NCBI GenBank assembly: GCA_041639695.1
Contig: JBEQBQ010000020.1
Location: 1-17,087 of the forward strand
Source: Candidatus Nanohaloarchaea archaeon
GTDB lineage: Archaea; Nanohalarchaeota; Nanosalinia; Nanosalinales; Nanosalinaceae
Direction: 5' to 3'
Length of the DNA: 17,087 nt
Part shown: positions 1 to 17,087 of the stretch, piece by piece
Position numbering within the stretch: the stretch's first letter is position 1
Layout of the letters: the number at the start of each line of letters is the position of its first letter
Notes under the pieces: model-generated
The model's database searches: none
What the model was told of the DNA's origin: nothing
Seen by the model: the letters and a program-made list of their open reading frames with translations, nothing else
Made by a program: the position numbers and the translations under genes

Positions 1-471
1 CAACGGGTAGACGATCTGTGAAATGCTCTGACTGTCTTCTTCACCTGAAGCGACTTCTGCCATCGAGCGCTGCCCTCTGTTAATTGTAGTCTCTTTCGAC
101 ATTTCGAGGACGTCGTGGAAGTATTCGGTCTCTTCCTGGAACTCTCTACCTCTAATGAATTCGGCGTCAAGTCCTGTGGCTTTGAAGGTGGCTTCCCAGT
201 ACTCTGTCATGGCCTGGATCCATTCCTCCTCGCCTTTCTTGTTCAAATATGTGTGAAGATCTGCGAAAAGCACTTTCAGGTCGAAACCGGCCTTCTGCAG
301 ATCCGTTAGTTTTCTTATTGATGCCCAGTGTCCGAGGTGTACAGGACCCGAGGTCTCATAGCCTACATAAGTGGTTGGTTCTTCTTTTTCGAGAACTTCG
401 TCAAGTTCTTCTTCTGTAACGATTTCAGTAGTATTTCTCAGGACCAGTTGTTTGCGCTCCTCGGTGTCCAT
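1..471 (-). CDS. tyrS: Tyrosyl-tRNA synthetase, archaeal type (N-terminal 157 aa; runs off the left edge)
   Basis: Not in the ORF track. Manual translation from ATG at 471 gives MDTEERKQLVLRNTTEIVTEEELDEVLEKEEPTTYVGYETSGPVHLGHW...KVLFADLHTYLNKKG...FIRGREFQ...SQIVYPL, with a HIGH-type motif (HLGH), ADLH and YPL motifs typical of archaeal TyrRS. The frame is open to position 1. Confidence 0.96.
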   Translation of the reverse strand, partial: MDTEERKQLVLRNTTEIVTEEELDEVLEKEEPTTYVGYETSGPVHLGHWASIRKLTDLQKAGFDLKVLFADLHTYLNKKGEEEWIQAMTEYWEATFKATGLDAEFIRGREFQEETEYFHDVLEMSKETTINRGQRSMAEVASGEEDSQSISQIVYPL

Positions 472-492
472 AACTTGTTGTGCGGGTCTAAG

Positions 493-502
493 GGTTAAAA
501 CT
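493..502 (-). promoter_or_regulatory. Putative TATA box for tyrS (likely leaderless mRNA)
   Basis: TTTTAA on the minus strand (495-500), about 25 nt upstream of the ATG at 471, with no SD motif in between. Confidence 0.5.
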
Positions 503-512
503 GTTGGCGGTT

Positions 513-1352
513 CTACAGAATTTCGGAGTCATCCAGCTTGTCCAGAGGGTTGGTGCTTATCAGGTTTTCAGATCGTTTAAGTGTGTCGAAGAACTCTTTC
601 ATCTGTCTTGAAAGTTCTTGCTCTCCGAAACTTTCGGATCTTTCCTCTATGTTCTCGACGTTGCTTGGGCTTCCTGCTTTATCCGGGTTGATGAACCTGT
701 TACCGGCTTCTAGGTTGTTCCTTCTTCTGTAATCCGAAAGATCGCTGAAATGTCCTATGCCCTTCTTGTAGGCTTGCCAGCTTTTTTCCGTGTTCCTCTC
801 GGCCTCCTCGAGCACGGCCTCGATGTTGAAGCTGTTTGATGCCCCGGATATGTGTTCAAGTATGCTGTTGTAGAACCTGAGTTCTCGGGCCGTCCCCAGC
901 ATCTCTTCCTCTATCTCCTTCCGCTCTTCGCGCTGCTGTTCTGCATCGATCTGTCTCTTTAGGTCCCTGTACGAGGGGATGCTTAGAGCCTTCATATAGA
1001 GTTCCTCCGATTCTGCCTTGATGCTTTCAAGTAGCTGGGTTACGACGCCTTCGAGCTCATCGCCTTCATGCATGTCTCTTAACTCCCTATTCGAAGGCAA
1101 TTCGCCGGTGAAGGGCTCTATCAGGGTCACACCGTCTCGTTCCTCTGCCTCGACCATCAGGTTATCGGCGTAGAAAAGCAGGTTATCGGTTTTCCCCAGC
1201 ATGTCGTGCGCTGTCCTTCCATACGGCTGCTTCCGGGTCTTAAGATACCTTTCCAGCGCTCTCTCCGCCTCTGAAGCATAGAAGCACAGTTCTCTTGTGC
1301 GATCCAACACACTTTCCTGCAGCTGTCTTTCTACTTGTTTTCGCCCGGTCAT
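513..1352 (-). CDS. Hypothetical acidic, helical protein with internal repeats
   Basis: 279-aa ORF filling the gap between tyrS and the YbaK gene. Glu-rich, with AGGTGG upstream of the ATG. No family motif recognised. Confidence 0.75.
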   Translation of the reverse strand: MTGRKQVERQLQESVLDRTRELCFYASEAERALERYLKTRKQPYGRTAHDMLGKTDNLLFYADNLMVEAEERDGVTLIEPFTGELPSNRELRDMHEGDELEGVVTQLLESIKAESEELYMKALSIPSYRDLKRQIDAEQQREERKEIEEEMLGTARELRFYNSILEHISGASNSFNIEAVLEEAERNTEKSWQAYKKGIGHFSDLSDYRRRNNLEAGNRFINPDKAGSPSNVENIEERSESFGEQELSRQMKEFFDTLKRSENLISTNPLDKLDDSEIL

Positions 1353-3397: not shown

Positions 3398-3490
3398 AAT
3401 ATAAAAAATTCTATTGAGTACAACAAAATAGATGTTTGGGAGATCTCGAAAACCCAGGGCCAATAAATTCTCTATGGGGGAGGTCTCCGG

Positions 3491-5247: not shown

Positions 5248-5292
5248 TTATACAGAAAATAAGTCTACAATATGTTATATTCGTTGTGGTGA

Positions 5293-5314
5293 GGGAGTAG
5301 AGAAAGAGAAAAAC
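5293..5314 (-). terminator. Putative archaeal pyrimidine/oligo-T terminator after hsp20
   Basis: Minus strand reads GTTTTTCTCTTTCTCTACTCCC directly after the hsp20 stop codon. Confidence 0.5.
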
Positions 5315-5734
5315 TTACTCGATCTCCACGTCCCAATCGTCGCTGTCCTCCTCTTTCTCAGCTCTAACAGTAAGAACGCCTTCATCATACTTTGCCTTGA
5401 TAGTTTCCGGGTCGATCTTGGTAGGCCAGCCGATTTTCCTTGAGAAATGTCTCGAGCTTCTTTCTTTCCTGATGTATTTCTCGTTTTCTTCTTTGATCTC
5501 ATGCTTCGCTTCGGCTGTGATCTCTATACGGTCCTCGTCGGCTTTAATGTTGATATCGTCCTTTGTAACTCCCGGAAGGTCAGCTGTAAGAATTATTTCG
5601 CCGTCTTCATCTTTCATGTCGACAGGCACTCCTGTTACTCCGGCTTGTTTTCCAAGGTTCTGGAACTGGTTTAGCATCCTCTGCATCTGATCTCTGAAGT
5701 CGTCGAAGCCGTCATGTCGGTCGAGGCGTCTCAT
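5315..5734 (-). CDS. hsp20: Small heat shock protein (Hsp20/alpha-crystallin family)
   Basis: PVDM...ADLPGVTKDDINI...YIRKERSSRHFSRKI...IKAKYDEGVLTVRAEK with a C-terminal VEI motif. Start at ATG 5734 preferred (GTGAT SD-like upstream, AT-rich TATA at about 5757-5770); 5749 is the alternative. Confidence 0.93.
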   Translation of the reverse strand: MRRLDRHDGFDDFRDQMQRMLNQFQNLGKQAGVTGVPVDMKDEDGEIILTADLPGVTKDDINIKADEDRIEITAEAKHEIKEENEKYIRKERSSRHFSRKIGWPTKIDPETIKAKYDEGVLTVRAEKEEDSDDWDVEIE

Positions 5735-5771
5735 AAATATCACATACACTTTTTTGTTTATATCTTTAAAA

Positions 5772-5975
5772 TTATTGTTCTTCTTGAGTCTTTTCCTGGC
5801 TCACCTGCTTCAAAAAGTCCAGCTGCTCATGCACTTCAGAAAGAATCTCCTCAACCCTCTGCTGCTTATCACTTAGATCGCCTTCAGCATTAGAATCCTT
5901 GACCTCCTCAAACTCGTGATCCAAGGTCTCAACCTCCGACTCAAGCTCCTCCACAATCTCTTCTTCATCTGACAT
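5772..5975 (-). CDS. Small acidic helical/coiled-coil hypothetical protein
   Basis: 67 aa, very Glu-rich with heptad-like hydrophobic spacing. TTATAAA on the minus strand at 6001-6007 lies about 26 nt upstream of the ATG. Confidence 0.7.
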   Translation of the reverse strand: MSDEEEIVEELESEVETLDHEFEEVKDSNAEGDLSDKQQRVEEILSEVHEQLDFLKQVSQEKTQEEQ

Positions 5976-5999
5976 ATAACAAATCTACGGCCTTCAACC

Positions 6000-6066
6000 G
6001 TTTATAACTCCCGTACCGACCCGGTTTGTTCGATAGAAATCGAATAACTGTCTGAATGTTATAAGC
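6000..6066. promoter_or_regulatory. Divergent promoters with central palindrome
   Basis: TATA-like boxes at 6001-6007 (-) and 6059-6064 (+, TTATAA) flank TTCGAT-AGAA-ATCGAA (6029-6044). Confidence 0.55.
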
Positions 6067-6101
6067 CGGAGGAACCAATTTAGGCGTGTAGGAATAAGAC
6101 T

Positions 6102-6827
6102 ATGTCGATTATTAGCCTTCAGGACGTTGAGAAAAACTACCAGCTCGGAGAAACAATAGTCAGAGCTTTAAGAGGTTCAAACGTCGAGATAGAGGAGGGA
6201 GAATTCATAGCGGTCATGGGGCCATCCGGATCGGGCAAAAGCACCTTGATGAACATGATAGGGGCTTTAGACGTGCCCAGTGAAGGTACCGTAAACATAG
6301 GCGGCGAAAAAATAAACGAGATGACGGAAAACCAGCTTGCACTACTAAGAAGCAAGAAAATCGGGTTTATATTTCAAGAATTCAACCTGGTTAACTCGAT
6401 GAACGCCCGGCAAAACGTAGCACTGCCCATGATCTTCAGAAATACTCCGAAAAAGAAGAGGGTTGAAAGAGCAGACGAGCTACTCGAAGAAGTCGGTCTA
6501 GGCGAAAGAAAAACATTTAGGCCTTCCGAACTATCCGGAGGTCAGAGACAGAGGGTTTCTATAGCCAGAAGCCTTGCAAACAACCCTGAAATAATTCTAG
6601 CGGACGAACCTACGGGTAACCTTGACACAGAGACCGGCTCAAAAATAATGGATTTACTAACGGAACTAAACGAAGAAGGAAAGACAATCATAATGGTTAC
6701 ACACGATCCAAACGATGCTGAATACGCTGACAGAATTGTAAGAATAGTAGACGGAAAAACAAATCCTGAAGAAGGCCTGGAAAACCAGGAAAAACTCAAG
6801 AATCCAGAGAAAGACGATGAAAACTAA
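6102..6827 (+). CDS. ABC transporter ATP-binding protein, LolD/MacB-like
   Basis: Walker A GPSGSGKST, Q-loop GFIFQEFNL, signature LSGGQRQR, Walker B/D-loop ILADEPTGNLD, H-loop VTHD. Confidence 0.96.
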   Translation: MSIISLQDVEKNYQLGETIVRALRGSNVEIEEGEFIAVMGPSGSGKSTLMNMIGALDVPSEGTVNIGGEKINEMTENQLALLRSKKIGFIFQEFNLVNSMNARQNVALPMIFRNTPKKKRVERADELLEEVGLGERKTFRPSELSGGQRQRVSIARSLANNPEIILADEPTGNLDTETGSKIMDLLTELNEEGKTIIMVTHDPNDAEYADRIVRIVDGKTNPEEGLENQEKLKNPEKDDEN

Positions 6828-8001
6828 AAAACTTGCATTCACGGTTTCGCTGCTACTTTTAACAGGTATCGCAGCCGCACAATCCTCAACCCAAATAGAT
6901 ATCTCGAAAAAGACTTTGGAGCCTACACCGCTCCAATCATCGGAGTACGCAGACATATGGATCGAAGTAAGAAACACCGGTAATACAGCCGCAAACGATG
7001 TTAATGTAGAATTTCTGGAGAACTATCCTTTCTCGGTTGACAGGGACGACAAAAATTCCTGGAACTTAGGGGAACTGGTTCCGGGAGAGTCAAGCCAGAT
7101 CCACTTAGAGGTAAAGGTGGATGAGAACGCGGTGCACGGTGAAAACATGCTCGAGTTCAAAACCGCTCTAGGCTCTGAGAACATCGAATTAGAGAAGAAA
7201 GTTCCAGTAGAGGTCAGGACCGATAGCTCCATACTTTCAATTTCAAACGTTAATTTTCCGGACAAGGTTGCTCCTGGGGCCTCGGAAGAAATGACTGTAA
7301 ATCTTGAAAACATGGCTGACTCACAGCTCAAAAACATCGAGGTAAAGCTTGGATCGGAACAGGTTCCGGTTGCAGCATCAGACTCAAACATAGCCAACGT
7401 CAGAAAGATAGAGCCACGAGACAACACAAACGTTTCATTCCGGTTGAATATAGATGAGTCAGCCGAAAACGGGGTTTACAAGCTTCCTTTAATGCTTGAA
7501 TACGAGAATGAGGCCGGAACATCCTTCTCAGTTGGTTCTACAACCGCTTTAGTTGTTGGAGGAGAACCTGACTTACAGATTGGAGTGAACGATGCAGGAA
7601 CACTGACACCGGATTCAACAGGCACAGTAACACTGAGGCTAATAAACCAGGGTGAAGGTTCAGCCGACTTCGTAGACCTTGAAGTTAAAGAGTCTGAAAG
7701 CTACGAAATCCTATCCTCCAACACAGAATACATAGGTGAGATGGATCCTGACGACTATCAAACAGTCGAACTTAGAATGCACGTCTCCGGAAACGCTGAA
7801 AGTCTTCAAATACCTGTAGAACTTGGTTACAAATCAGATTCGCAGAAGTCGGAGATACAGACTGTTGACGTCAAGCTTTACACTTCACAGGAGCTTGAAA
7901 GATACGGTCTGGCTAGTGGAGGAAGCATCATGCCGTTGATCGTTGTTGTGCTGTTGATCGGCGGCGGTATCTACTACTGGAGGAAGAGACGCGAGAGATA
8001 A
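6817..8001 (+). CDS. COG1361-like (S-layer domain) surface protein with signal peptide and C-terminal membrane anchor
   Basis: Sec signal (MKTKKLAFTVSLLLLTGIAAAQ), three beta-rich Ig-like repeats (IEVRNTG / VNLENMA / LRLINQG), YIGEMDPDD motif, and a C-terminal TM helix followed by YYWRKRRER. Typical position in archaeal MacB-like ABC operons. Confidence 0.8.
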   Translation: MKTKKLAFTVSLLLLTGIAAAQSSTQIDISKKTLEPTPLQSSEYADIWIEVRNTGNTAANDVNVEFLENYPFSVDRDDKNSWNLGELVPGESSQIHLEVKVDENAVHGENMLEFKTALGSENIELEKKVPVEVRTDSSILSISNVNFPDKVAPGASEEMTVNLENMADSQLKNIEVKLGSEQVPVAASDSNIANVRKIEPRDNTNVSFRLNIDESAENGVYKLPLMLEYENEAGTSFSVGSTTALVVGGEPDLQIGVNDAGTLTPDSTGTVTLRLINQGEGSADFVDLEVKESESYEILSSNTEYIGEMDPDDYQTVELRMHVSGNAESLQIPVELGYKSDSQKSEIQTVDVKLYTSQELERYGLASGGSIMPLIVVVLLIGGGIYYWRKRRER

Positions 8002-9197
8002 TGCTGCTTGACTTCCTGAAACTGGCTTACAGGAACATCAGGCACAGGAAGAAGAGATCCTGGCTTACGATAATAGGCACACTTATCGGTATAATGGCTG
8101 TAGTATCACTGGTTTCAATTGGTCAAGGTCTTCAGACATCTATAGAAAGTGAGTTCAGGGAAATAGGAGCTGACAAAGTGTATGTTTCGCCGGGAGGTGG
8201 CAGCACCGCAGAAAGGTTTTCCGGCACGGCTGCTAAACTTGGAGAAGACGACCTGGAAGCAATAAGAAGAACGAGAGGTGTTAAGACAGTTGATGGAAGG
8301 GTTTCAGGTTCTTTACTTGTTGGGATCGATGATGAAAACTTTTTCAGGCAGATCTACGGAGTCAAGCCAGATTCCGATCTTATGAAGCAGACACTTGATA
8401 TTCAGATCGATGAAGGAAGGTATCTAAGACCTACCGACAGCTCAGGTGTGGTTGTAGGCCAGAGTATTGCTGAAGATGAGGGTTTGGAGCCAAGATCACG
8501 GCTGGATATAGATGGAAAGGATTACAGGGTTGTTGGGGTAAGTGAAGCATCCAGTAACAGAAATGTCGACTCAGGTATAGTGATGGCTATCGAAGAAGCA
8601 AGAGAGCTTCTCAACAAACCTGAAGCTTTTGATTCGATAAACGTTAAAGTTCTCGAGGGTTACGAACCGTCCGAAGTCGAAAAGAATGTAGGGAAAAATC
8701 TGAGAGACGAGAGAAACGTTGAGAAAGGAGAGGAAGACTTCACCACAAATACCGCTGAAGACCTAATAAGATCGCTTAACAACCAGCTGAGTATCGTAAG
8801 AGGTGTTTTATTGGGTATAGGTTCTATCTCTCTCCTGGTTGGTGCGGTGGGAATTATGAACACTATGTATACTTCGGTGGCGGAAAGAACCCGTGAAATA
8901 GGGGTTATGAAAGCTGTCGGAGCCACGAACCGCCAAATACTTACTTTGTTCCTTATAGAATCTGGCGCCATCGGTTTAGTTGGCGGGGCTATGGGAGCTA
9001 CGGTCGGAATAGGTCTGAGCTGGGCCGCAACATCCTTAATCACATCACAGCTCGGTATAGCGATAAGTCCATATATCGGGGTTGACCTGATACTTGGATC
9101 CCTGATCTTCTCCTTCATAGTTGGAATGGTTTCCGGTGTCTTACCGGCTAGAAAAGCCTCGAAGCTTGAACCTGCGGAGGCGATACGCTACGGATGA
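8001..9197 (+). CDS. ABC transporter permease, MacB/FtsX/LolE-like (1)
   Basis: RSWLTIIGTLIGI TM1, large extracellular domain, GIMNTMYTSVAERTREIGVMKAVGA, PARKASKLEPAEAIR. TAATG coupling with the upstream gene. Confidence 0.94.
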   Translation: MLLDFLKLAYRNIRHRKKRSWLTIIGTLIGIMAVVSLVSIGQGLQTSIESEFREIGADKVYVSPGGGSTAERFSGTAAKLGEDDLEAIRRTRGVKTVDGRVSGSLLVGIDDENFFRQIYGVKPDSDLMKQTLDIQIDEGRYLRPTDSSGVVVGQSIAEDEGLEPRSRLDIDGKDYRVVGVSEASSNRNVDSGIVMAIEEARELLNKPEAFDSINVKVLEGYEPSEVEKNVGKNLRDERNVEKGEEDFTTNTAEDLIRSLNNQLSIVRGVLLGIGSISLLVGAVGIMNTMYTSVAERTREIGVMKAVGATNRQILTLFLIESGAIGLVGGAMGATVGIGLSWAATSLITSQLGIAISPYIGVDLILGSLIFSFIVGMVSGVLPARKASKLEPAEAIRYG

Positions 9198-10402
9198 TAA
9201 AAGACTTCTTCACTTTAGCGGTCAGAAACCTGCTTCACAGAAAGAGAAGATCATGGCTAACCGTGATAGGTGTGTTCATCGGTATCGCCGCCGTTGTTTC
9301 ACTGGTTTCTCTCGGACAGGGTTTGGAGGACTCTGTAGAGAAAGAGTTTGAATCAATAGGAAGCAACAAGCTCTTCATTAATCCTGGAGGCGACCAGACA
9401 CAGGGAAACGCCGCGTCCGGATCAACTTTGACGGAAGAGGATCTTCAGGCTATTAGAAACGTGAAGTCGGTCGATGAGGCAGGAGGCGCACTGTTTAAAA
9501 CAGCGCAGATCAGTTACAACGACAACAAAGAGTTTGTAGTGGTTTTAGGTATCCCTATGGGTGAGGCCAAACAGATCGTTGAGACGAGCTGGGCCATGGA
9601 GGTAGGTGAGGGACGAGAACTAAGACCTACCGATACATCAAGTATAGTAATCGGCAGCGCGATATCCGACAAATTTAATTCGGATATAGGTATAAGATCT
9701 CAGTTAGAGGTCAGGAACGATACTTACAGGGTTGCAGGAATTTTGAAGCCGACAGGAGATCCTTCGATCGATGGGGCGGTTCAGCTACCTATAGAAAACG
9801 CTAGAGAGCTTCTAGGAGCTGAAGACGATACTTACGACTGGATATTCGCCAGAATACAGGACGGTTTTGAAGCAGAAAGCGCGAAAGAAGAGGTTGAAGA
9901 AGCCTTAAGACAGAGAAGAAATGTTGAGGAGGGCAACGAACGCTTTACGGTTTCAACACAGGAAGACCTGATCTCATCATTCACAAGCATACTCAACGTC
10001 GTAAGAGGCGTGGTAATCGGTATAGCATCAATATCTCTTTTGGTTGGCGCGGTCGGTATCATGAACACTATGTACACGGCGGTAACTCAGCGAACCAGGG
10101 AGATCGGGGTAATGAAGGCGATAGGTGCGACAAACAGGCAGGTAATGCTTCTCTTCATTCTAGAATCCGGCATGCTGGGCTTAATCGGAGGAGGTCTTGG
10201 AGTGTTTGTAGGAGTTTCACTCTCATCCCTCGCGTCTTGGGGGGCCACCCAAGCAGTAAATATACCGATAAATCCTTACCTAGGGCCTGAACTGTTGATA
10301 GGTTCCCTGCTGTTCTCCTTTGTGGTTGGAACGCTTTCCGGTGTTTTCCCTGCAAGAAGGGCTGCAAAACTTGAGCCTGCCGAAGCATTAAGATACGAAT
10401 AA
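9194..10402 (+). CDS. ABC transporter permease, MacB/FtsX/LolE-like (2)
   Basis: Paralogue of the preceding gene with the same motifs (GIMNTMYTAVTQRTREIGVMKAIGA, PARRAAKLEPAEALRYE). ATGA overlap. Confidence 0.94.
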   Translation: MIKDFFTLAVRNLLHRKRRSWLTVIGVFIGIAAVVSLVSLGQGLEDSVEKEFESIGSNKLFINPGGDQTQGNAASGSTLTEEDLQAIRNVKSVDEAGGALFKTAQISYNDNKEFVVVLGIPMGEAKQIVETSWAMEVGEGRELRPTDTSSIVIGSAISDKFNSDIGIRSQLEVRNDTYRVAGILKPTGDPSIDGAVQLPIENARELLGAEDDTYDWIFARIQDGFEAESAKEEVEEALRQRRNVEEGNERFTVSTQEDLISSFTSILNVVRGVVIGIASISLLVGAVGIMNTMYTAVTQRTREIGVMKAIGATNRQVMLLFILESGMLGLIGGGLGVFVGVSLSSLASWGATQAVNIPINPYLGPELLIGSLLFSFVVGTLSGVFPARRAAKLEPAEALRYE

Positions 10403-10403
10403 A

Positions 10404-11102
10404 TCAGAGTTCGATGTCGTAGAACTCTTCCATTCCTCTGGCGACCTCTTCAACTTCCTGATCGGTAGTACCATCCACCATTTTTAGATCTCTGAAGAAG
10501 TTTATAGCGTATCTTGTCTCGTGCTGCTCCACATCCTCGCTGAAGGAGTTCTCAAAAGCCAAGTTGGCAGCCATCACAGCTTCGTTACCCTCAAGGTTCG
10601 GACTGCTGAGCACTCCGATTATCGTAGGTCCATAGCTCTCGATCAGATCCGGATTTCTGACGTGTCTGAGCGCGAACAGGGTATCCTCTGTATCTACGGT
10701 TTTATCGACGTGTTCTGCCAGACGGTAGGCTTTAAGCGAGTGATCATACTTCGCGATATCCCTTATAGAGGTTTCATTCACCTCTATGTATCCTTTCCTG
10801 TTGGTGTCAATTATTTCTTGGTCGTCAAGTACAGAGATAAACTGGTCTAGTCTTCCTGACTCGAAGTTACGCCAGTCCGACACGTCCGAAAGCAGTGTAC
10901 GTCTCTTAACCTTTTCCGGATGATCTTCCGCATGAACAATATCTATCAGCTCCTCTATAACATACGGGCCTGATTCATACGCAAACTCCCAGGCCTCCTC
11001 GTTCAGATCGTTCTTTAAGAATCGGTAATCGTCCACGTTTTGTACGAAATCTATAGTTTTGTAATCGGTGATGTCCTCAAACAACCTGTCTGATCGGCTC
11101 AT
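10404..11102 (-). CDS. Hypothetical protein, possibly winged-helix-like
   Basis: 232-aa acidic ORF with TTTAA about 27 nt upstream. The segment LDQFISVLDDQEIIDTNRKGYIEV resembles a recognition helix plus wing (weak). Confidence 0.7.
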   Translation of the reverse strand: MSRSDRLFEDITDYKTIDFVQNVDDYRFLKNDLNEEAWEFAYESGPYVIEELIDIVHAEDHPEKVKRRTLLSDVSDWRNFESGRLDQFISVLDDQEIIDTNRKGYIEVNETSIRDIAKYDHSLKAYRLAEHVDKTVDTEDTLFALRHVRNPDLIESYGPTIIGVLSSPNLEGNEAVMAANLAFENSFSEDVEQHETRYAINFFRDLKMVDGTTDQEVEEVARGMEEFYDIEL

Positions 11103-11140
11103 CCAACTAGAACTATGGCGGTGAAATGTTAAATTAGTTA

Positions 11141-11165
11141 GAAAAAAGAGGGAAAAGAAGAGAGG
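11141..11165 (-). terminator. Putative oligo-T terminator of S-layer gene 1
   Basis: Minus strand CCTCTCTTCTTTTCCCTCTTTTTTC immediately after the stop at 11166. Confidence 0.6.
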
Positions 11166-13700
11166 TTACTGGGTCTCGACCTCGGTGCTTATAAGGATCG
11201 ATCTGTTTTCAAGCCTTTCCGAGTTCTCCTGGTAGTTGGACAAATAGTCGGCTGCAGCCTCTGTCTCATCTGCAGTGGTGCCTGCAACGATCAAAGTATC
11301 TCCGTTGAAAGCTTCCGTGGACTGAAGAAGCCAGGAACCTTCTTCGTACTGGTCAGCTGTAGGCGTAACGCCCTGTGAAGCTAGCTCCTGGGTCAGAGAG
11401 TTGACGGCAGGACCTCCCACAAGGATTACATTCTGGTCCTGTCTAAGCTCCGAAACCTCGGGGTTTGAAGCGTTGTAGACTATATTCGGCATCTCCTGAC
11501 CGGTCTGCTCCATATCTGTCTGCTCAGTGCTCGTCTGGTTCATGGAATTGCTGAAACCGATTAATGCGTAGGACTGTGACTCAGGTATCGAAAGCGTGAA
11601 GCCTCCATCATCAGGGTCGTGAGTCGAGTAAGCACCGAACCTGTCGTAACCAACGGTTACGTCTTCCTCGGTCTCTGCTGTACGCCGGAAACCGGTGTAG
11701 TTAGGTTGATCGACTATTACATCCTCATCGTCGACCTCGGTCCTCGCTACATAGGCCTCCTGCTGGTCATCGCCGTTAGAAGGCTCTATTATCAGGATCG
11801 AAGGATCATCGATAATGTTGTCGGTGTAAGCACCGGCCATCACCTCTCCGTTCTGGGTTCTGAAACCATACTCCTGTCCGCCTTCAACCGTGGCAATCAC
11901 TGTACCGTTCTCGGTTCTTGTCTCGACACCTGAAGAGCTGGAAACCGCTTCGACCGTGCCGTTGGAAGAACTGATGGTTACTGTCGGTTCTCCGGAGGAT
12001 GCGGGAAGACGGAAGGTTCTCTCGCCCTCGAAGTCAAGCATCGCATCATCGATTATCGAAACTGCGGAACCGTCACCTGTTTCGAGCGCGGGAAATAGAG
12101 GCGTGGAATCGGGATCCCATACCGCGCTCACCTCCTCTTCCGGAGTAACGTAGAAAGTGAAGCTCCTGCCATCAATAACCTTCTCCGCTTTGTAGATGCC
12201 GTCCGAGGGCTGAAGTTCTACACTGGCAGAACTTTCGGATAGCTCATCCTCAAGCTGAAGCGTGGCTTCTCCTTCGGAAAGGTCTGAGTCGGCATCAACT
12301 GACTCGATTCTCCACAGCCGGGAGAAACCTGCTGCATCCGTAGGAAGGTAGTCGTCCTCGGTCAGGGACTGGTTCTGGTATGTTCCGAATGTATCGCCGT
12401 CATCATTACCAAAAACGGTGGAGTTGTTGGCTAGGGTGGAGAAACCTACGTTGGCCTCGCCTTCGGAAGTGGTGAAGGATACCTCTGCGGTTTCACCCGG
12501 GTTTATCTCCACGCTGCTTCCCTCTTCGCTGGAGAAACCTTCGAAGCTGAACGAGGGACTGAAAAGGTTCGAGGAATACGAACTTCCTTCTCTAACGTAA
12601 GTCCGGTCCTCGTCGTTCGCACCTATGAAGAAGCTGAGGGATTGAAGGCTGCTGAAGTTTCCAGCGGCTTCGTAACCGATACCGGATATTTCTTCATCTC
12701 CGGAGCTTATGCTTCCGCCGCTCAAGGTTAATTCGGTTGATCCTGCGGAGAAACGTACTATGCCGTTGCTTCCCTCTAAATCGATCAGTTCCTGGACCCT
12801 CATCGATGCATCGTTCAGGCTGAAGCTTTCACCTTCCTCAAACTGTCGTAGTTCGCCATTAATTCTTGCTGCGACCTGTCCATCGTTAACGCTTACAACA
12901 GAAACAGTATGGTCAGATCCATCGATCGTAACGGTTCTTGACTGGTTTGTTCTCAGTTCTAGATCTCTTTGACCTGTCAACAAGACAAGTTCGTCCTGTG
13001 TAGTTTCTTCGGAGACCGTGAATGTTCTGCCGAAGAGACTTAGTTCCTGACCTGCTGCATCATCGGACGTAAGGTCTGCCGGGCTGTCCATGTTCGCCTC
13101 TAATTCGTAAAGGTGTTCGTCCTGACTGGGAACAGGGTTTTCTATGTAGAGGAAAGGCTCTGCATCGTCGTTAGGCCGTCCGAAAGTAACGTTCTGGTTT
13201 CCCACTCTGAGGAACTGTTCTATCTCGGTGTCCTCTTCCCCGGCATCAAAAGTGGTTGTGCTAAGTGAGTCAAGATCCTCCTCGGTCAGAATGTTTCTCG
13301 ATGAGTCTATAGTTGATCCTAGGTAAAGCCGCTCGTTCTCCGTAGTTAAGGGAACTTCTATGCTTGTTTGACTTGTTTCCTCGGTTGTGTTATCGTTTTC
13401 TGTTTCCGGTGTTTGATCGGTCTGGGAGTAAAGTGTTTCAGCAAGGTTCCTCGCGGAGTTAACATCGGTTTCCGAGGCAGATTCGCCGAAGACCACGATC
13501 GAGTTGACTTCGTTGTCCGTTACGTAGGGTTCAGGGAATTCGCCTAAACTTGTAGTTGTGTTGTTTTCGCTGTCCTGAGTGTTTTGAGTTGTGTTGTTTG
13601 TCTGTGCTGTTGCGCCTGCGACCAGTAGTGAGGCGGCAGCGACCGTTCCTGCGCCGTAGAGGGCTTTGGAAATGTTTTTCTTCGTTATGTTTAGCTTCAT
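11166..13700 (-). CDS. S-layer protein paralogue 1 (Methanococcales/Thermococcales-like N- and C-terminal domains)
   Basis: Signal peptide ending ATA-Q, N-terminal IVVFGESASETDVNSARNLA and C-terminal NVILVGGPAVNSLT...LIVAG...TEAAA motifs. Acidic, Ser/Thr-rich, many N-x-S/T sequons, AGGAGG SD upstream. Confidence 0.85.
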   Translation of the reverse strand: MKLNITKKNISKALYGAGTVAAASLLVAGATAQTNNTTQNTQDSENNTTTSLGEFPEPYVTDNEVNSIVVFGESASETDVNSARNLAETLYSQTDQTPETENDNTTEETSQTSIEVPLTTENERLYLGSTIDSSRNILTEEDLDSLSTTTFDAGEEDTEIEQFLRVGNQNVTFGRPNDDAEPFLYIENPVPSQDEHLYELEANMDSPADLTSDDAAGQELSLFGRTFTVSEETTQDELVLLTGQRDLELRTNQSRTVTIDGSDHTVSVVSVNDGQVAARINGELRQFEEGESFSLNDASMRVQELIDLEGSNGIVRFSAGSTELTLSGGSISSGDEEISGIGYEAAGNFSSLQSLSFFIGANDEDRTYVREGSSYSSNLFSPSFSFEGFSSEEGSSVEINPGETAEVSFTTSEGEANVGFSTLANNSTVFGNDDGDTFGTYQNQSLTEDDYLPTDAAGFSRLWRIESVDADSDLSEGEATLQLEDELSESSASVELQPSDGIYKAEKVIDGRSFTFYVTPEEEVSAVWDPDSTPLFPALETGDGSAVSIIDDAMLDFEGERTFRLPASSGEPTVTISSSNGTVEAVSSSSGVETRTENGTVIATVEGGQEYGFRTQNGEVMAGAYTDNIIDDPSILIIEPSNGDDQQEAYVARTEVDDEDVIVDQPNYTGFRRTAETEEDVTVGYDRFGAYSTHDPDDGGFTLSIPESQSYALIGFSNSMNQTSTEQTDMEQTGQEMPNIVYNASNPEVSELRQDQNVILVGGPAVNSLTQELASQGVTPTADQYEEGSWLLQSTEAFNGDTLIVAGTTADETEAAADYLSNYQENSERLENRSILISTEVETQ

Positions 13701-13760
13701 GTTTTCATTCCTCCTGTCAAAGACAGGTGTTCTCTAGAAAGTAAACGATTATTATACGCT
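13701..13760 (-). promoter_or_regulatory. 5' leader and promoter of S-layer gene 1
   Basis: Minus strand: TATAATAA (about 13749-13756) ... CCTGTC-TTT-GACAGG hairpin (13713-13727) overlapping the AGGAGG SD, then AATGAAAAC-ATG. Confidence 0.55.
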
Positions 13761-13810
13761 CTAGGAACGGTTAAAACAGGAATTAAGGTTGTAGAGGTTT
13801 CTTTTCACAG

Positions 13811-13831
13811 GAGTAAATGTCCTGTTTACTC
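13811..13831. repeat. Inverted repeat GAGTAAA-N7-TTTACTC
   Basis: Perfect 7-bp arms at 13811-13817 and 13825-13831, just downstream of the DUF433-like stop and upstream of the S-layer 1 promoter. Confidence 0.6.
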
Positions 13832-13836
13832 TTGGT

Positions 13837-14012
13837 CTATTTCCGGTATCTTAGGGCTTCCTCGGCTTGAAACGTGGAGATTCTAAGCTCTGAAGAAATA
13901 GTTTCGATACTCCGATCTAAACTGTAGAATCTGGTGCAGACATCATCTACTGCAACTCGGGTTTTCCCTATAACAGGTTTGCCTGACCGGATTTCAGGAT
14001 TTTGAGTATCAT
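13837..14012 (-). pseudogene. DUF433-family antitoxin-like gene with a 1-nt frameshift after codon 2
   Basis: Not in the ORF track. The frame ending at TAG 13837-13839 reads TQNPEIRSGKPVIGKTRVAVDDVCTRFYSLDRSIETISSELRISTFQAEEALRYRK, matching the DUF433 pattern P.I..GKP.I..TR..V...AL.Y. The only nearby ATG (14012) is out of frame; ATG-to-stop length is 176 nt, one short of 59 codons. Confidence 0.75.
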
Positions 14013-14051
14013 GGTTATGTAAAGATAAACCTAAACTAGCTCTCTAGGTTT

Positions 14052-14189
14052 TTAGCGCCTCAACGTCTTTACTTCCTCAACAGAGTCAACATCTAGATCG
14101 GAGAACTTGGCAGATAGAACTTCGCCCAGTTTTCTTTCACTTTCCTCATTTCCTGCAAGGCTGGCGACATCCCGAGCATATAGTCCCAT
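14052..14189 (-). CDS. Small 45-aa protein, possible VapB-like antitoxin
   Basis: Not in the ORF track. MGLYARDVASLAGNEESERKLGEVLSAKFSDLDVDSVEEVKTLRR; GGTG 6 nt upstream of the ATG. The C-terminal DSVEEVKTLRR resembles tails of archaeal VapB-type antitoxins. Confidence 0.5.
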   Translation of the reverse strand: MGLYARDVASLAGNEESERKLGEVLSAKFSDLDVDSVEEVKTLRR

Positions 14190-14247
14190 ATTTACACCAA
14201 TTTTTTGGAAAAAATAATAGATTTTGGGTTGTGAAGTAGTCGGTCTT

Positions 14248-14280
14248 TCAGAAGAAAAAAGAAATGGTTAAGAAGAAGTC
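14248..14280 (-). terminator. Putative oligo-T terminator of S-layer gene 2
   Basis: Minus strand CTTCTTCTTAACCATTTCTTTTTTCTTC just after the stop at 14285. Confidence 0.55.
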
Positions 14281-14284
14281 TCGG

Positions 14285-17087
14285 TTACTGTGTCGAGACC
14301 GTTGTCTTCTCCAAGCTCTTGCCAGTCATCTCGTCTTGGTGGTCCTGGTAGTTGGCAAGGTAGTTCGAAGCAGCCTGAGTGTCTTCAGCGGAATGTCCGG
14401 CCACAACTAATGCTTGGTTCTGGTTGAAGGCGTTTTCAACCGTCTGAAGCATCCACATGTCCTCTTGGTACTCGCTCGAAGATTTGGTCTGGTTGTTGTC
14501 TGCCAAGGTCTCTGTCAAACTGTTGACTGCCGGACCTCCAACTAGGATCATGTTCTGGTTCTGACTGGCTTGTGTGTCCAGGGTTGCTGCGTTAGGCCAT
14601 CCGGCAGGTCTCTGAACGCTGGAACTTCCTGTCGAACTTAGTTCTCCGGTTCCGAAGCCAGCTCCAGCAGTTGCCTGCGAATCAGGATAGTTCAGGGTAA
14701 GCGAGCCCTTTCCATCAGAGTCATGTTCCGTGTAGACCCCGTAACGGTCGACTCCCGCAGTAACATCGTCATTCGACTCAAGAGTTGCGGTCTGCCTGTT
14801 CGAACTACTGTAGCTAGGCTGATTAACCGTTACCTCAGAATCACCTCCATCATAACCCGGTGTAACCGTGTAACTGTGCTGATCACCATTCTCTGTCTCC
14901 TCCTCAATAACCACAAGTCCTGGTTTGGAAGGAAGAATGGAGTTCAAGCCTGTTACTCCTGAAGTCTCCGAGGAATCAGTCGACCAGTACTGGACGTTTC
15001 CTGTTGAGGATCCGAAGACCGTGTCTCCCGTACTGTAGTCGTTAGAGGAGTCGGAGTCAACTACTACGGTATCTGATGAACTGAATGGCTGGCTTCCTGT
15101 ATGCTTGGTCTGAGATCCGAATGAGACAAGACTTGTTCCAACGGAAGGTGTGCCGTCTGCTCCGTTCAATAGGACGTTGTCGGCCTGTGCGGTGTAGACT
15201 CCGTCACCATCTGAATCGATAGCGAGGAAGTCGTTTGAGTTGTCCCAAGCACCACCATCTGTGCTGTCGTAGGAATCGATTGTCCAGTCGGAGTCTTGAG
15301 AGTTCGATACTGTAATCGGTGTTCCTCCTGATGGGGCGTTTCCGGCTACAACGGTATCGGCCTGTGCGGTATAAGATCCGTCGTTATCGTCGTCTACAAA
15401 GACTTCGTCACCGCTGTCATATCCATTAGCACTGTTGACGTTTATCCATCCAATCCCGGAAGGGTTGCTTACCGTGGAAAGATCCACAAGGCTATCTCCG
15501 TCTGCCCTGTTGTTGCTTCCGCCAGCGTTTACCACTGTGTCTGCTCCTGCGGAGTAAGTTCCTCCATCGTGGTAATCGATGATTATATCGTCACCATCAC
15601 TATAAGTGGAGTCCCCTCCGCCGAGAGCTATATGATCGGAAGAGACGAAGCTTGTCGCTCCGTTACCGGCTCCATAAGTCTGAGCTCCATCGTCGCCTGT
15701 AGAAATCAGGGTGTCTGCACTGCTTCTACCATCTCCGGTAGAATCCCAGTAGATATCGTCTCCGGCGTCGAACCCATTACTGTCTGCATCGTTGTAGTAG
15801 AGAGTGCCTGATCCTGTTGCGGTATAAGGTCCACTAACGCTTGCGGCGTTTGAGAGATCAGCGGTCATACCCCAATCGTTGTCTTGGGATGCTGTACCGT
15901 CGGCATCAACTACTTGATCTGGTTGAGCTGTGTAGACTCCATCGTTGTCGTCATCGGTCACTACATCCTCTCCAGAATCAAAGGCACTATCTGATGAAAC
16001 TAGATAATAGGTACCTCCCGTGATTGAGGACATTGAGGAATAGCTTGTCCCGTCAGTTGAATCAACTCCTGAGTTTGAACCTGTGTTTAGGGCTGTGTCT
16101 GCTCCTGCGGAGTAGGTTCCTCTGTCGCCTATGTCTAGGATTATTGCGTCGTTCGAACTGTCGTAAGCGTCTCCGCTTGAGCTATCGTACGAATCAAGAC
16201 TCCAGTCAGCATCAAATGAACCGGTGGAGGTGTAGGATGTACTGTCTGAAGGCGCTGCACCTGCCACGGAGGTATCCGCAGAATCGGAATGTGTTCCTGA
16301 TCCTCCTGCATCCTCGATTATGCTGTCGCCGTCACCGTAACCCGCAGAAGTTTCGGTTGACTGGCTTTTGTGGTCGATAAAGTACTCGTCAGTCTGGAAG
16401 TCAACTAGAGAAGCACCTATTGCGACTCCAGAAGGATCCTGTCCCGGATCGTAGAATGCGAGTCTTGCACCGTTATCGGTTTTGATTGTTGGGAATGCTG
16501 TTGTTGTTCCTGAGTTTGCTGAGCCTGTCGCTGAGTAGTCGGAGTCGGTTCCCCAGGTAACTTCTACCTCGTCGTCGCTTCCATCGTCGTCTGATGCGGT
16601 GTTGTAGGAGAAGTGGTATGTTTGTCCGTCGATAACTTTCTCTGCTTCGTATTCTCTGTCTGAGTCTCCTGCACCCCCTGTTACGTCGTTTGCGTCAAGC
16701 TCTACTTCGATTGAAGCTCCTGAGATTTTGTCTTTTAGTTCGACTGTTGCGGTGTCTCCGCTTGAAGGAGCCTGTGAGTCCGCGTCCAGTTCTGTTACTT
16801 CCCAGAAGTGTGAGAAGTCTCCGGCATCAGATGTGAAGTACTCGTCTTCCTGTACGGGTTCGCCTTCGACCGCGACAATCTTGTCGCCGTCATCATCCGC
16901 AAGGGAGAAGCTTCCATCGTAATGTGCGAAGCCCTGCGTCATTTCGTTTGTTGAAACTTCAACTGTTTCGTCGTTCTGTGCCTGTACTTCGATGTCCTCT
17001 CCCTCGTTTAGTGAGGATAGTCCTTCGAAGCTGAATGAAAGGCTTCCGAAAACAGGGTCCTCGAACTTTTGTCCTGATGCAACGTAG
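14285..17087 (-). CDS. S-layer protein paralogue 2 with a large Asp/Gly-rich repeat insertion (5'-truncated by the window edge)
   Basis: The frame stays open past 16942 to the edge (YVASGQKFEDPVFGSLSFSFEGLSS..., aligning with paralogue 1 YVREGSSYSSNLFSPSFSFEGFSS). Shares AEKVIDG, DVT.G.DR[FY]G.Y..HD.D and N.ILVGGPAVNSLT blocks with paralogue 1. Confidence 0.87.
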   Translation of the reverse strand, partial: YVASGQKFEDPVFGSLSFSFEGLSSLNEGEDIEVQAQNDETVEVSTNEMTQGFAHYDGSFSLADDDGDKIVAVEGEPVQEDEYFTSDAGDFSHFWEVTELDADSQAPSSGDTATVELKDKISGASIEVELDANDVTGGAGDSDREYEAEKVIDGQTYHFSYNTASDDDGSDDEVEVTWGTDSDYSATGSANSGTTTAFPTIKTDNGARLAFYDPGQDPSGVAIGASLVDFQTDEYFIDHKSQSTETSAGYGDGDSIIEDAGGSGTHSDSADTSVAGAAPSDSTSYTSTGSFDADWSLDSYDSSSGDAYDSSNDAIILDIGDRGTYSAGADTALNTGSNSGVDSTDGTSYSSMSSITGGTYYLVSSDSAFDSGEDVVTDDDNDGVYTAQPDQVVDADGTASQDNDWGMTADLSNAASVSGPYTATGSGTLYYNDADSNGFDAGDDIYWDSTGDGRSSADTLISTGDDGAQTYGAGNGATSFVSSDHIALGGGDSTYSDGDDIIIDYHDGGTYSAGADTVVNAGGSNNRADGDSLVDLSTVSNPSGIGWINVNSANGYDSGDEVFVDDDNDGSYTAQADTVVAGNAPSGGTPITVSNSQDSDWTIDSYDSTDGGAWDNSNDFLAIDSDGDGVYTAQADNVLLNGADGTPSVGTSLVSFGSQTKHTGSQPFSSSDTVVVDSDSSNDYSTGDTVFGSSTGNVQYWSTDSSETSGVTGLNSILPSKPGLVVIEEETENGDQHSYTVTPGYDGGDSEVTVNQPSYSSSNRQTATLESNDDVTAGVDRYGVYTEHDSDGKGSLTLNYPDSQATAGAGFGTGELSSTGSSSVQRPAGWPNAATLDTQASQNQNMILVGGPAVNSLTETLADNNQTKSSSEYQEDMWMLQTVENAFNQNQALVVAGHSAEDTQAASNYLANYQDHQDEMTGKSLEKTTVSTQ
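14993..16435 (-). repeat. Eight degenerate 54-70-aa protein repeats within S-layer paralogue 2
   Basis: Core [FYW]-[DSG]-x-[GS]-(x)-D-x-phi-phi-x-D-x-x-x-x-G-x-Y-[ST]-A-x-A-D-x-V recurs at residues about 202, 260, 321, 391, 447, 508, 566 and 620 of the 885-aa track ORF. Three copies have exact Dx[DN]xDG (DDDNDG twice, DSDGDG). Confidence 0.8.

Follow-up and report, generated by a model that had tools for sequence, protein, structure and literature searches.

Tandem S-layer paralogues of a nanohaloarchaeon with a candidate recombining cassette of Asp-rich repeats at a fixed slot

The slpA cassette types of Clostridioides difficile and the sap system of Campylobacter fetus pair a conserved anchor with an exposed variable part that is swapped by recombination. 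Flagellins and archaellins, the subunits of self-assembling polymers, carry hypervariable outer-domain insertions in a surface loop, and the hyperhalophile Salinibacter ruber reportedly possesses cell-wall-associated genomic islands. DPANN symbionts have to recognise their hosts via the cell surface, and to our knowledge the S-layer of a nanohaloarchaeon has yet to be described in molecular terms. A passage of a 2024 paper (PMC11329633) states that no S-layer structure of any DPANN member had been obtained. According to a study of the cell-wall islands of Haloquadratum walsbyi, homologous recombination sets apart the S-layer and surface-glycoprotein genes of lineages that live together, a variation explained there as lowering viral infection (PMC4535781). 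The SymProFold paper presents the anchoring domain of M. voltae as a dimer that anchors a p6 lattice (PMC11410804). Here we describe two tandem S-layer paralogues of one nanohaloarchaeon and present comparisons suggesting that a portable Asp-rich array, lodged at a fixed slot of the scaffold, evolves as a recombining cassette, an explanation that as a whole we hold at a probability of roughly 0.6.

The window, the whole 17,087-nt stretch of DNA that was analysed, carries the two genes in tandem on the minus strand, at 11166-13700 and 14285-17086. The first, identified as an ORF and by its translation, encodes a complete protein of 844 aa (paralogue 1, P0001). The second (paralogue 2, P0002; an ORF with a PF05124 match, entered as 14285-17087) is visible for 933 aa and has its 5' end off the contig, because the window is the entire contig G000:C20; it aligns with its 1317-aa orthologue P0010 from residue 375 of the latter, and about 375 N-terminal residues are thus absent. 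Both proteins pass the PF05124 cut-off of 23.9 bits in Pfam (63.3 bits for paralogue 1, 43.6 for paralogue 2), and TIGR01564 matches paralogue 1 at 42.1 bits (cut-off 25) and gives no match to the N-terminally incomplete paralogue 2. Together with the structural match of paralogue 1 to 9fsa_A described below, these results uphold the assignment of both genes to the Methanococcales/Thermococcales-type S-layer family, which a sequence-only reading had put forward. The nearest database hits and the 0.97-Mb genome likewise support that reading's suggestion of a nanohaloarchaeon. BLASTP of the translations aligns residues 368-551 of paralogue 1 with 1-213 of paralogue 2 (35% identity, E 2e-20) and residues 633-844 with 722-933 (39% identity, E 7e-35). 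The same reading had placed the two proteins in register on either side of a single point, and the ends of the HSPs coincide exactly with the anchors it had named (FPALETGDGSAVSII and FPTIKTDNGARLAFY before the point, PSILIIE and PGLVVIE after it); the inserts between them, estimated at about 80 and 500 aa, measure 81 and 508 aa.

Within the intergenic spacer (13701-14284, minus strand; read from the sequence, its ORFs and BLASTN gaps), an oligo-T run lies directly past the paralogue-2 stop, and a TATA-like box and GGAGG precede the paralogue-1 ATG. Oligo-T is present past the stop of each paralogue gene, and each is probably transcribed separately. A 471-nt segment of the spacer (13779-14249), holding a 45-aa ORF (14052-14189), is missing in G002, a genome of the same genus. 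The search of sequencing runs matched one DNA run and listed no RNA run.

Read by eye, the translation of paralogue 1 opens with a hydrophobic stretch ending in A-x-A, a putative Sec-type signal, and closes with a polar C-terminus; from its translation it is a putative secreted protein with no evident C-terminal membrane anchor. It contains 19 N-x-S/T sequons where 10.8 are expected. In its AF2 model (mean pLDDT 87.9) the two termini together match the M. voltae S-layer cell-wall anchoring domain (PDB 9FSA): VIA-align superposes 129 of 135 residues of 9fsa_A on the model range 49..825 with Z 17.5, rmsd 2.4 A and 30% identity, and the profile match has an E of 5.3e-14. The N-terminal part of the predicted anchoring domain spans about aa 49-95 (13416-13556, minus strand; VIA-align to 9fsa_A) and the C-terminal part about aa 740-825 (11226-11483, minus strand; PF05124, profile match and VIA-align), the latter bearing an ILVGGP..N motif that is invariant in alignments A1/A2. 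The all-beta middle weakly matches Methanosarcina DUF1608 (3u2h, Z 7.5). VIA-align was informative for the anchoring domain alone, and a Foldseek search of the model against the PDB returned only whole-chain beta-propeller rows at a TM of about 0.1, which we rejected as meaningless. Between the BLASTP anchors, aa 552-632 (11805-12047, minus strand) are modelled by AF2 as an eight-strand beta module (strands at 553-625, block pLDDT >=95), and a search of these 81 aa against Pfam found nothing at E<=10. This segment is 85% identical to that of the orthologue at the amino-acid level, and the whole protein 74%. With a dS of 1.43 and a dN/dS of 0.12, paralogue 1 has diverged from its orthologue to the same extent as the neighbouring genes, and it shows purifying, not diversifying, selection.

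Measured between hmmalign anchors in 165 proteins of the family, the slot has a median length of 88 aa (5-95% range 53-205) and reaches 366-518 aa in seven; genomic copies extend this range, with slots of 64 to 547 aa. Taken at first for a special module, the 81-aa segment of paralogue 1 instead represents the usual state of the family and ranks among the best-conserved parts of the protein. Across the family, length varies with particular frequency at the anchor point itself, as expected of the variable slot that had been postulated. The further suggestion that unrelated domains recur there held in part: at least four slot contents that cannot be related to one another by BLASTP occur in the phylum, but the large inserts (366-547 aa) all belong to a single repeat family. 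The same long architecture is found in G002, G016 and G031 and in P0015, P0016, P0017 and P0020. In the P0009-type subfamily (G008 long form, P0011), long members have about 520 aa at one point where short members have about 105, although the alignment of this subfamily to the main one is too weak to equate the two sites.

The slot of paralogue 2, as bounded by BLASTP HSP ends and hmmalign anchors, spans aa 214-721 (508 aa; 14924-16447, minus strand), only about 100 residues ahead of the C-terminal anchor part at aa 834-913 (14348-14587, minus strand; PF05124, AF2 block pLDDT 82-88). Repeat analysis and a profile search place within it an eight-repeat Asp-rich array at aa 225-700 (14987-16414, minus strand), whose units 1 to 8 lie at 16238-16414, 16058-16237, 15851-16057, 15680-15850, 15497-15679, 15317-15496, 15164-15316 and 14987-15163 on the same strand. 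Each unit is about 58 aa long and has short hydrophobic strands separated by a loop of the D-x-D-x-D-G type, and a six-frame profile search of G000 recovered 8/8 units (E 1.7e-18 to 1.7e-11). Tandem Repeats Finder detected no tandem array in the DNA, because the units, 63-81% identical at the DNA level, are too diverged.

FG-GAP/VCBS beta-propellers (PF13517, PF01839) are built of Ca-binding D-x-D-x-D-G repeats. The array resembles them in its period of about 60 aa, in the acidic loop between short strands and in its occurrence on surface proteins. We rejected this identity on three grounds: the insert has no Pfam match at E<=10; PF13517 has no match in G000, yet matches occur in 21/70 genomes of the phylum; and when 79 units were compared by hhalign with 21 FG-GAP_3 units from nanohaloarchaea, the probability was 0.1% in the global and 0.65% in the local comparison. 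Neither the insert nor an 18-unit profile retrieved a relevant sequence from the PDB, and an ESM Atlas search with the array gave no usable match. A repeat of this composition (D 16.6%, E 1.1%, K+R 1.1%, S+T+G 39.7%), with no family or structure match, could be an unstructured acidic brush or spacer that hydrates the surface and buffers cations in brine, has no specific partner and varies since it is barely constrained. The AF2 model of paralogue 2 agrees with such a brush at face value, as residues 221-700 stay below pLDDT 50 (30-45) with almost no secondary structure; this poor score may, however, reflect a shallow and mis-registered alignment, the input having had 31 rows of which about 14 carried arrays. 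Against the brush stand the hydrophobic and aromatic positions that recur in a fixed pattern in the units, an aromatic (8.6%) and hydrophobic (22%) content equal to that of the folded scaffold, and unit subtypes up to 62% identical between a nanohaloarchaeon and a Haloarchaeobius protein. We consider a brush unlikely and, given the scaffold-like composition and the retention of subtypes between phyla, infer that the array is folded rather than disordered. The loop motif suggests divalent cation binding.

Other carriers indicate that the repeat is not tied to the S-layer scaffold. An archaellin-like protein, P0166, combines a PF01917 domain (62.6 bits) with about 14 of the same repeats; in the ESM Atlas it matches archaellin clusters only, at 0.84-0.85 and without structure. 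In P0012, P0013, P0014 and P0019 an N-terminal array is followed by Ig/PKD-like domains and then by a TM or PGF-CTERM tail, such that the array forms the membrane-distal head of anchored stalk proteins in halophilic archaea. The unit subtypes of the array recur in both kinds of carrier and in further S-layer long forms of nanohaloarchaea. A metagenome scan with paralogue 2 yielded 150 pattern matches and no confirmed ones. The array appears to be an undescribed repeat family, so far confined to surface proteins of halophilic archaea.

The history of the array is best seen by comparing paralogue 2 of G000 with that of G002. The scaffold DNA of the two is 90-93% identical by BLASTN (90.4% and 91.9% for the two flanks), with a flank dS of 0.36 and 0.32 and a flank dN/dS of 0.04-0.15, and the two genomes are 78-82% identical in three sampled 12-kb segments, five neighbouring genes having a dS of 1.16-1.87. 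Inside this scaffold lies a 1.4-kb core (15004-16412, minus strand) for which BLASTN finds no match between the orthologues; across the cassette dN is 0.67, dS is not computable, and the edges are sharp, within <=40 aa. The segment behaves as a replaced cassette because a core with no BLASTN match sits inside a scaffold that is 90-93% identical.

A chimeric contig or collapsed repeats, arising in assembly or binning, would give a similar picture; coverage is low, at about 7-8.6x, and the contig end falls within the gene. Yet an independent 2714-nt Logan contig from run X1, the sole matching DNA run and possibly the source of the MAG, covers 14595-17087, including both cassette junctions, with no differences, and the junctions are therefore not a chimera of this MAG assembly alone. 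The frame stays open through 933 codons, the repeats are too diverged in DNA to collapse, and the same architecture recurs in G002, G016, G031 and P0015/16/17/20. We regard an artefact as exceedingly improbable.

A more substantial alternative is that the arrays drew apart in situ, units being duplicated, lost or exchanged by unequal crossing-over and substitutions accumulating fast, with no foreign DNA. Tandem repeats are the classic substrate of slippage and unequal exchange, the first units of P0002 and P0010 are still 57% identical, and a search of 69 other genomes of the phylum for a donor of the G000 cassette gave nothing but a single 51-nt match. The units nevertheless argue otherwise. 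The subtype strings of the two orthologues (C-B-E-.-.-A-H-. in P0002 and C-L-I-M-J-.-D in P0010) diverge after the first unit; units 2, 3, 6 and 7 of P0002 share 55-62% identity with units from other lineages and 33-44% with any unit of P0010; and the order of shared subtypes is reshuffled between lineages. The units within P0002 are old, as their DNA identity shows, and the flanks, at a dS of 0.32-0.36, enclose with sharp edges a cassette that cannot be aligned as DNA. Divergence in place accordingly strikes us as improbable. P0015 and P0031 display the opposite pattern, their scaffolds being about 32-60% identical per 50-aa window and their cassette windows matching at 43/50 and 43/49 positions. 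In the close pair P0015/P0016 the array is conserved like the scaffold (33-44 matching residues in windows of about 50, one window excepted), and swapping is therefore episodic, not constant. At the level of sequence these comparisons show discordant histories of scaffold and array, the array having apparently been exchanged independently of the scaffold, and they bear out the view of the long insert as an exchangeable module.

As to the source of incoming units, tblastn of the array against phage and plasmid collections gave no match, though the low-complexity filter may hide some. The profile found no silent array copies in G000, only the eight units of paralogue 2, in an assembly that is 89% complete and whose contig ends inside the gene, so that absence is not proven. 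No invertible promoter was seen. A diversity-generating retroelement was rejected, since PF00078 has no match in G000 (89% complete) and the change is replacement of a whole cassette, not adenine-directed point changes.

On a scaffold tree from which the slot columns were left out, long forms fall at five to six places, and an AU test under LG+G4 only, with the long-form group named once the tree had been seen, rejects a single long-form clade (delta lnL 230.7, p 0.0006). Concerted evolution of the tandem scaffolds could also scatter the long forms. No further S-layer copy was found by tblastn in the 0.97-Mb G000 genome (assembly 89% complete); G002 has three tandem S-layer paralogues, and long and short forms are paired in tandem in G002, G016 and G008 and on separate contigs in G031. 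Paralogue 2 might be a minor, S-layer-anchored adhesin, held in or under a layer of paralogue 1 or of a third paralogue and not itself lattice-forming. Long forms are indeed few (7/165 proteins), the cores of the two paralogues are only 35-39% identical, and paralogue 2 carries one sequon against 19 in paralogue 1, with none in the array. The entire beta core is kept, however, and well conserved (flank dN/dS 0.04-0.15), and more than one genus has a long form paired with a short one (G002, G016, G008, G031). A purely accessory role seems to us somewhat doubtful.

The recombining-cassette explanation would join these observations as follows. In each paralogue the N- and C-termini would come together as the anchoring domain, leaving the layer to be built by the all-beta middle. 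At a fixed point of that beta core almost every family member would bear a beta module of 40-120 aa, its site being occupied in the long paralogue by the eight-repeat array, probably a portable surface module of halophilic archaea. Recombination with breakpoints in the first and last units would replace the inner units, and near-identical scaffolds of two species would therefore bear unrelated arrays. The array may face outward as a variable contact surface serving host attachment, virus escape or both, and the sequon-rich paralogue 1 may supply a glycosylated bulk layer. A bolder proposal, which we advance only tentatively and think rather unlikely, is that the array represents a new type of binding head, portable and dependent on cations, which halophilic archaea would fit into self-assembling surface polymers (the S-layer lattice, an archaellum-like filament) and onto stalk proteins, and whose inner units nanohaloarchaea would swap between lineages, changing the host or virus engaged; if so, the S-layer would be a programmable display lattice and not only a coat. 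The locus offers a candidate contact surface of variable make-up that can be tested, with a defined insertion site, a modelled scaffold and an exchanged array. Complete genomes of the same family with long and short pairs (G016, G008) would make culture tests possible if they come from cultivated strains, and the slot may suit engineered display on archaeal S-layers.

Among described systems, the present proteins are like the Methanococcales/Thermococcales-type S-layer proteins in their putative Sec signal, the apparent lack of a membrane anchor and the two termini that form one predicted anchoring domain, and they share the all-beta middle of the Methanococcales type. They are about 270-750 aa longer than the Methanococcus S-layer proteins, for which PMC11410804 gives 567-576 aa; they differ further in that two or three paralogues lie in tandem and that the core of one houses an acidic array of roughly 470 aa. 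As in the slpA and sap systems, conserved flanks (90-92% at the nucleotide level) enclose an unalignable exchanged segment between close lineages; unlike sap, G000 yielded no silent donor copies, and the protein family is unrelated. The large extra module in a surface polymer subunit recalls the archaellin insertions, of which P0166 is an example, although here the scaffold is a two-dimensional lattice and not a filament. The islands of hyperhalophiles involve whole genes or gene sets, whereas the variable element here is a segment within one gene of a DPANN symbiont, with breakpoints in repeats. Cassette variation of an S-layer is thus of a known kind, and the repeat module that it appears to exchange is undescribed.

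Two S-layer genes lie on the minus strand of the window, which is one contig (C20) in full of a 971-kb source genome (38 contigs, 89% complete): paralogue 1 (P0001, 11166-13700), a complete ORF of 844 amino acids, and paralogue 2 (P0002, 14285-17086), an open frame of 933 aa cut off by the end of the contig. Both pass Pfam family PF05124 (63.3 and 43.6 bits, respectively; cut-off 23.9), P0001 scores 42.1 bits against TIGR01564 (cut-off 25), and the closest database protein, 71% identical, is an S-layer protein from a 'Nanohaloarchaea archaeon'. BLASTP aligns the two proteins in two collinear blocks, P0001 368-551 with P0002 1-213 (35%, E = 2e-20) and P0001 633-844 with P0002 722-933 (39%, E = 7e-35), which enclose a slot that is 81 aa long in P0001 and 508 aa long in P0002. 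Because the block ends coincide with the anchors named in the sequence-only reading, its observation that the paralogues carry different modules at one insertion site is correct, coordinates included.

A profile built from 11 sequences and searched against 1.84 billion representatives retrieved a family of 4020 proteins (E<=1e-3). Among 165 proteins aligned to it, a set in which five repeat carriers are not S-layer proteins and a few entries are fragments, the inter-anchor distance has a median of 88 aa (5-95% range 53-205); slots of 366-518 aa occur only in P0002, P0010, P0015, P0016, P0017, P0020 and P0031, and slots of 188-195 aa in P0028 and P0085. Genomic copies from ten genomes have slots of 64, 88, 91, 103, 112, 116 and 138 aa at the short end and of 215, 225, 231, 244, 392, 519 and 547 aa at the long end. 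All-against-all BLASTP (E<=1e-3) sorted 20 slot contents into acidic repeats (six), a short 'ELPSTESTD' module (seven, some partial), a group from G012, G021 and P0085 (three), the paralogue-1 pair (two) and two singletons. Because lengths vary across the family and these groups are unrelated in sequence, the slot is, as judged from these alignments, a genuine hot spot of variation. The suggestion that unrelated domains recur at the slot is thus partly borne out by the length hot spot and by several sequence-unrelated contents, but every very large insert belongs to one repeat family.

In P0002 this repeat array occupies residues 225-700 as eight units of ~58 aa. The first half of each unit runs from an alternating aromatic/aliphatic strand through an acidic turn, [WY]-D and G-D-D/E to a hydrophobic strand, and the second half from a D-x-D/G-x-D/G-G loop through x-Y-[ST] and A-D-T to a further hydrophobic strand. 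The array contains 16.6% D, 1.1% E and 1.1% K+R; its aromatic (8.6%) and hydrophobic (22%) contents are the same as those of the scaffold. No Pfam family matches the array at E<=10, no PDB sequence matches the insert or an 18-unit profile, and ESM-Atlas gave no usable match to the array. A likeness by eye to the calcium-binding FG-GAP blade failed when tested: PF13517 has no match in the source genome, and when 79 units were compared by hhalign with 21 nanohaloarchaeal FG-GAP_3 units, the probability was 0.65%. Eight such units of four strands each would be compatible with a closed propeller with meeting ends, a shape that would lend itself to insertion into a loop. The AF2 model of P0002 is good for the scaffold and has pLDDT 30-45 at residues 221-700.

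Evidence on the history of the array comes from comparison with a same-genus genome, G002, in which three tandem S-layer genes lie at 8534-11332, 13217-17170 and 17318-19858 of contig C8: an extra copy of 932 aa, the paralogue-2 orthologue P0010 (1317 aa), and the paralogue-1 orthologue P0003 (839 aa; the longest ORF of the locus is 846 aa). The 932-aa copy is the nearest relative of the long-form scaffold (63% identity over the N-terminal 380 aa), and its counterpart in the source genome probably lies past the contig end, absent from the assembly. In 40-aa windows, P0002 and P0010 are 88-100% identical outside residues ~227-690 and 20-58% identical inside. At the DNA level, the paralogue-2 flanks match G002 at 90.4% (17077-16413) and 91.9% (15003-14250), and the intervening 1409 nt are without a BLASTN match. 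Codon analysis gives the flanks dS of 0.36 and 0.32 (dN/dS 0.15 and 0.04) and the cassette a dN of 0.67 with dS not calculable. The background between the two genomes is 78-82% identity in three sampled 12-kb segments of other contigs, and five genes at 5315-10402 have dS of 1.16-1.87. Because the divergence of the flanks is well below this background, the paralogue-2 scaffold is, by these alignments, recently common to both lineages, yet it surrounds an unrelated array. No reverse transcriptase is present in the source genome. Searches there recovered no additional copy of the array or the S-layer genes, and a search of the genomes of 69 other species recovered no donor for the cassette.

The subtype strings obtained by clustering 79 units of 12 proteins are (C-B-E-.-.-A-H-.) for P0002, (C-L-I-M-J-.-D) for P0010, (C-E-N-F-D) for P0015 and P0016, (C-E-.-.-F-D) for P0031 and (L-I-H-M-B-K-.) for P0011. 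The P0002 and P0010 arrays have only the first unit in common (57%); P0002 units 2, 3, 6 and 7 share 55-62% identity with units of other lineages, including Haloarchaeobius, but only 33-44% with any P0010 unit. P0015 and P0031 present the converse case, with scaffolds of ~32-60% identity per 50-aa window and two array windows that match at 43/50 and 43/49. Array replacement is episodic, since the array is conserved as much as the scaffold between P0015 and P0016.

A scaffold tree with the slot columns left out (43 selected rows: both window proteins, 16 ORFs taken from genomes and 25 proteins from databases, 5 of them outgroups) places every long form next to short forms of its own lineage. 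The window and G002 long forms are sister to the third G002 paralogue, and the long form of genome G016 is sister to that genome's short form (support 100 each); the tree implies 5-6 state changes. A single clade of seven long forms, a grouping defined after the tree had been seen, was rejected by an AU test run under LG+G4 only (delta lnL 230.7, p 0.0006). Because the junction sequences are common to all long forms, whose first units are all of type C and whose last units are D-like, we read the insert as having one origin, followed either by transfer of the slot region from scaffold to scaffold or by concerted evolution of tandem scaffolds. Under either route, the histories of array and scaffold differ as far as these sequences indicate.

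Within the source genome, the unit profile matches only the eight paralogue-2 units; across the phylum it matches 18 of 70 genomes and 11 of 32 genera, and 8 of the 28 genomes that are >=90% complete (E<=1e-5). Carriers are of four kinds. Long S-layer forms bear the array at the slot (P0010, P0015, P0016, P0017, P0020, P0031, P0167 and a 1359-aa gene of G016). Another, distant subfamily of S-layer proteins (P0009 type) is the second kind: in genome G008, a tandem pair of a long gene (1213 aa; contig C1, 3673-7314) and a short one (801 aa; 7495-9900) again differs at one point, by ~520 vs ~105 aa, and the long form bears the acidic repeat family. P0013 and P0014 (~1220-1234 aa) combine a signal sequence, nine units, Ig-like domains and a C-terminal TM helix, and the haloarchaeal P0012 and P0019 (Haloarchaeobius) have N-terminal units, Ig/PKD/cadherin-like domains and a PGF-CTERM tail. 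In P0166, a metagenomic protein of 1069 aa, an archaellin N-domain (PF01917, residues 1-155, 62.6 bits; cut-off 29.5) precedes ~14 units and a short conserved C-terminus, so that the array is predicted to be inserted in an archaellin-like filament subunit too. All of these contexts are secreted, surface-anchored or surface-polymerising proteins, and in the stalk proteins the array is at the membrane-distal end; this is the chief, though indirect, pointer to an outward-facing contact role. Host contact, virus evasion or cation binding may be its function.

Paralogue 1 is of a different character. Its AF2 model (mean pLDDT 87.9, 76-row alignment), searched with VIA-align against 48,161 PDB representatives, has as its top match 9fsa_A (Z 17.5, rmsd 2.4 A, 129 residues, 30% identity), the Methanococcus voltae S-layer cell-wall anchoring domain composed of residues 24-75 and 484-576. 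The match spans P0001 49..825; therefore the N- and C-termini are modelled as jointly forming one anchoring domain, with an all-beta middle as the remainder. The Methanosarcina DUF1608 S-layer domain (3u2h) matches more weakly (Z 7.5). The SymProFold study describes the anchoring domain as the dimeric anchor of a predicted p6 lattice (PMC11410804). The slot (552-632) has eight beta strands at block pLDDT >=95 and is, in this model, a normal folded module. P0001 and P0003 are evenly ~71-74% identical, the slot being a better-conserved part (85%), and the gene has a dN/dS of 0.12 and a dS of 1.43, equal to that of its neighbours. Paralogue 1 is an ordinary gene under purifying selection in a background-age block, and these values speak against casting it as a variable display form.

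The paralogues also differ in N-x-S/T sequons. P0001 has 19 vs 10.8 expected, a count reached by 0.6% of 2000 shuffles, and P0002 has 1 vs 11.6 expected (0/2000 shuffles so low), with none in the array; the orthologues contrast alike (P0003, 19 vs 11.9; P0010, 2 vs 16.6). Sequon depletion is likewise seen in most of the other nanohaloarchaeal S-layer copies tested. It is plausible that the paralogues divide the labour: paralogue 1 would be the bulk subunit, covered in glycans, and paralogue 2 a variable, acidic subunit left bare of them.

An oligo-T run lies directly 3' of each S-layer gene, and paralogue 1 has its own TATA-like box and GGAGG; each gene is probably transcribed as a unit of its own. 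Beside them is an ABC transporter set (6102-10402) of an ATPase, a CARDB protein and two MacB/FtsX permeases; the CARDB-domain protein has a weak match below cut-off to NF033506, 'putative S-layer protein' (29.9 bits). Directly downstream of paralogue 1, a 232-aa gene (10404-11102, minus strand), without a family match or an obvious signal sequence, shares just 56% identity (60-68% nt) with the corresponding gene of G002, much less than the adjacent genes do. Compared with G002 the window is a mosaic: 1-2840 is at 92.8% identity (gene dS 0.10-0.38), 5315-13778 is of background age (~76-80% nt, dS 1.2-1.9), and the paralogue-2 flanks (14250-17077) are young again (dS 0.32-0.36). Because young and background-age stretches alternate, recent inter-species recombination tracts are suggested. 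Positions 2841-5314 are absent from the syntenic G002 region and hold three ORFs (2960-3397 and 3491-4282, plus; 4279-5247, minus) that match nothing in Pfam, NCBIfam or PADLOC. Between the S-layer genes, 471 nt (13779-14249) lack a G002 counterpart, where G002 has 53 nt, and contain a 45-aa ORF (14052-14189, minus) with no family match. At 11906-12053 and 12745-12890, sequencing run X1 yields short extra contigs (151-187 nt, depth 2.6-4.7); because they differ by ~12-14% from paralogue 1, they hint at a second strain's paralogue-1 allele in the same sample.

We found no description of the repeat family, its insertion at the slot or intragenic swapping in the open-access literature searched. 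Cassette-type S-layer variation is known in bacteria. The protein family and its anchor domain are also already known and at least two S-layer proteins are reported for nanohaloarchaeal ancestors (bioRxiv 10.1101/2025.08.05.668663), S-layer genes of cultivated nanohaloarchaea are reported to adjoin SalXY, the same neighbourhood (PMC10266531), and recombination drives diversity of cell-wall islands in hyperhalophiles (PMC4535781).
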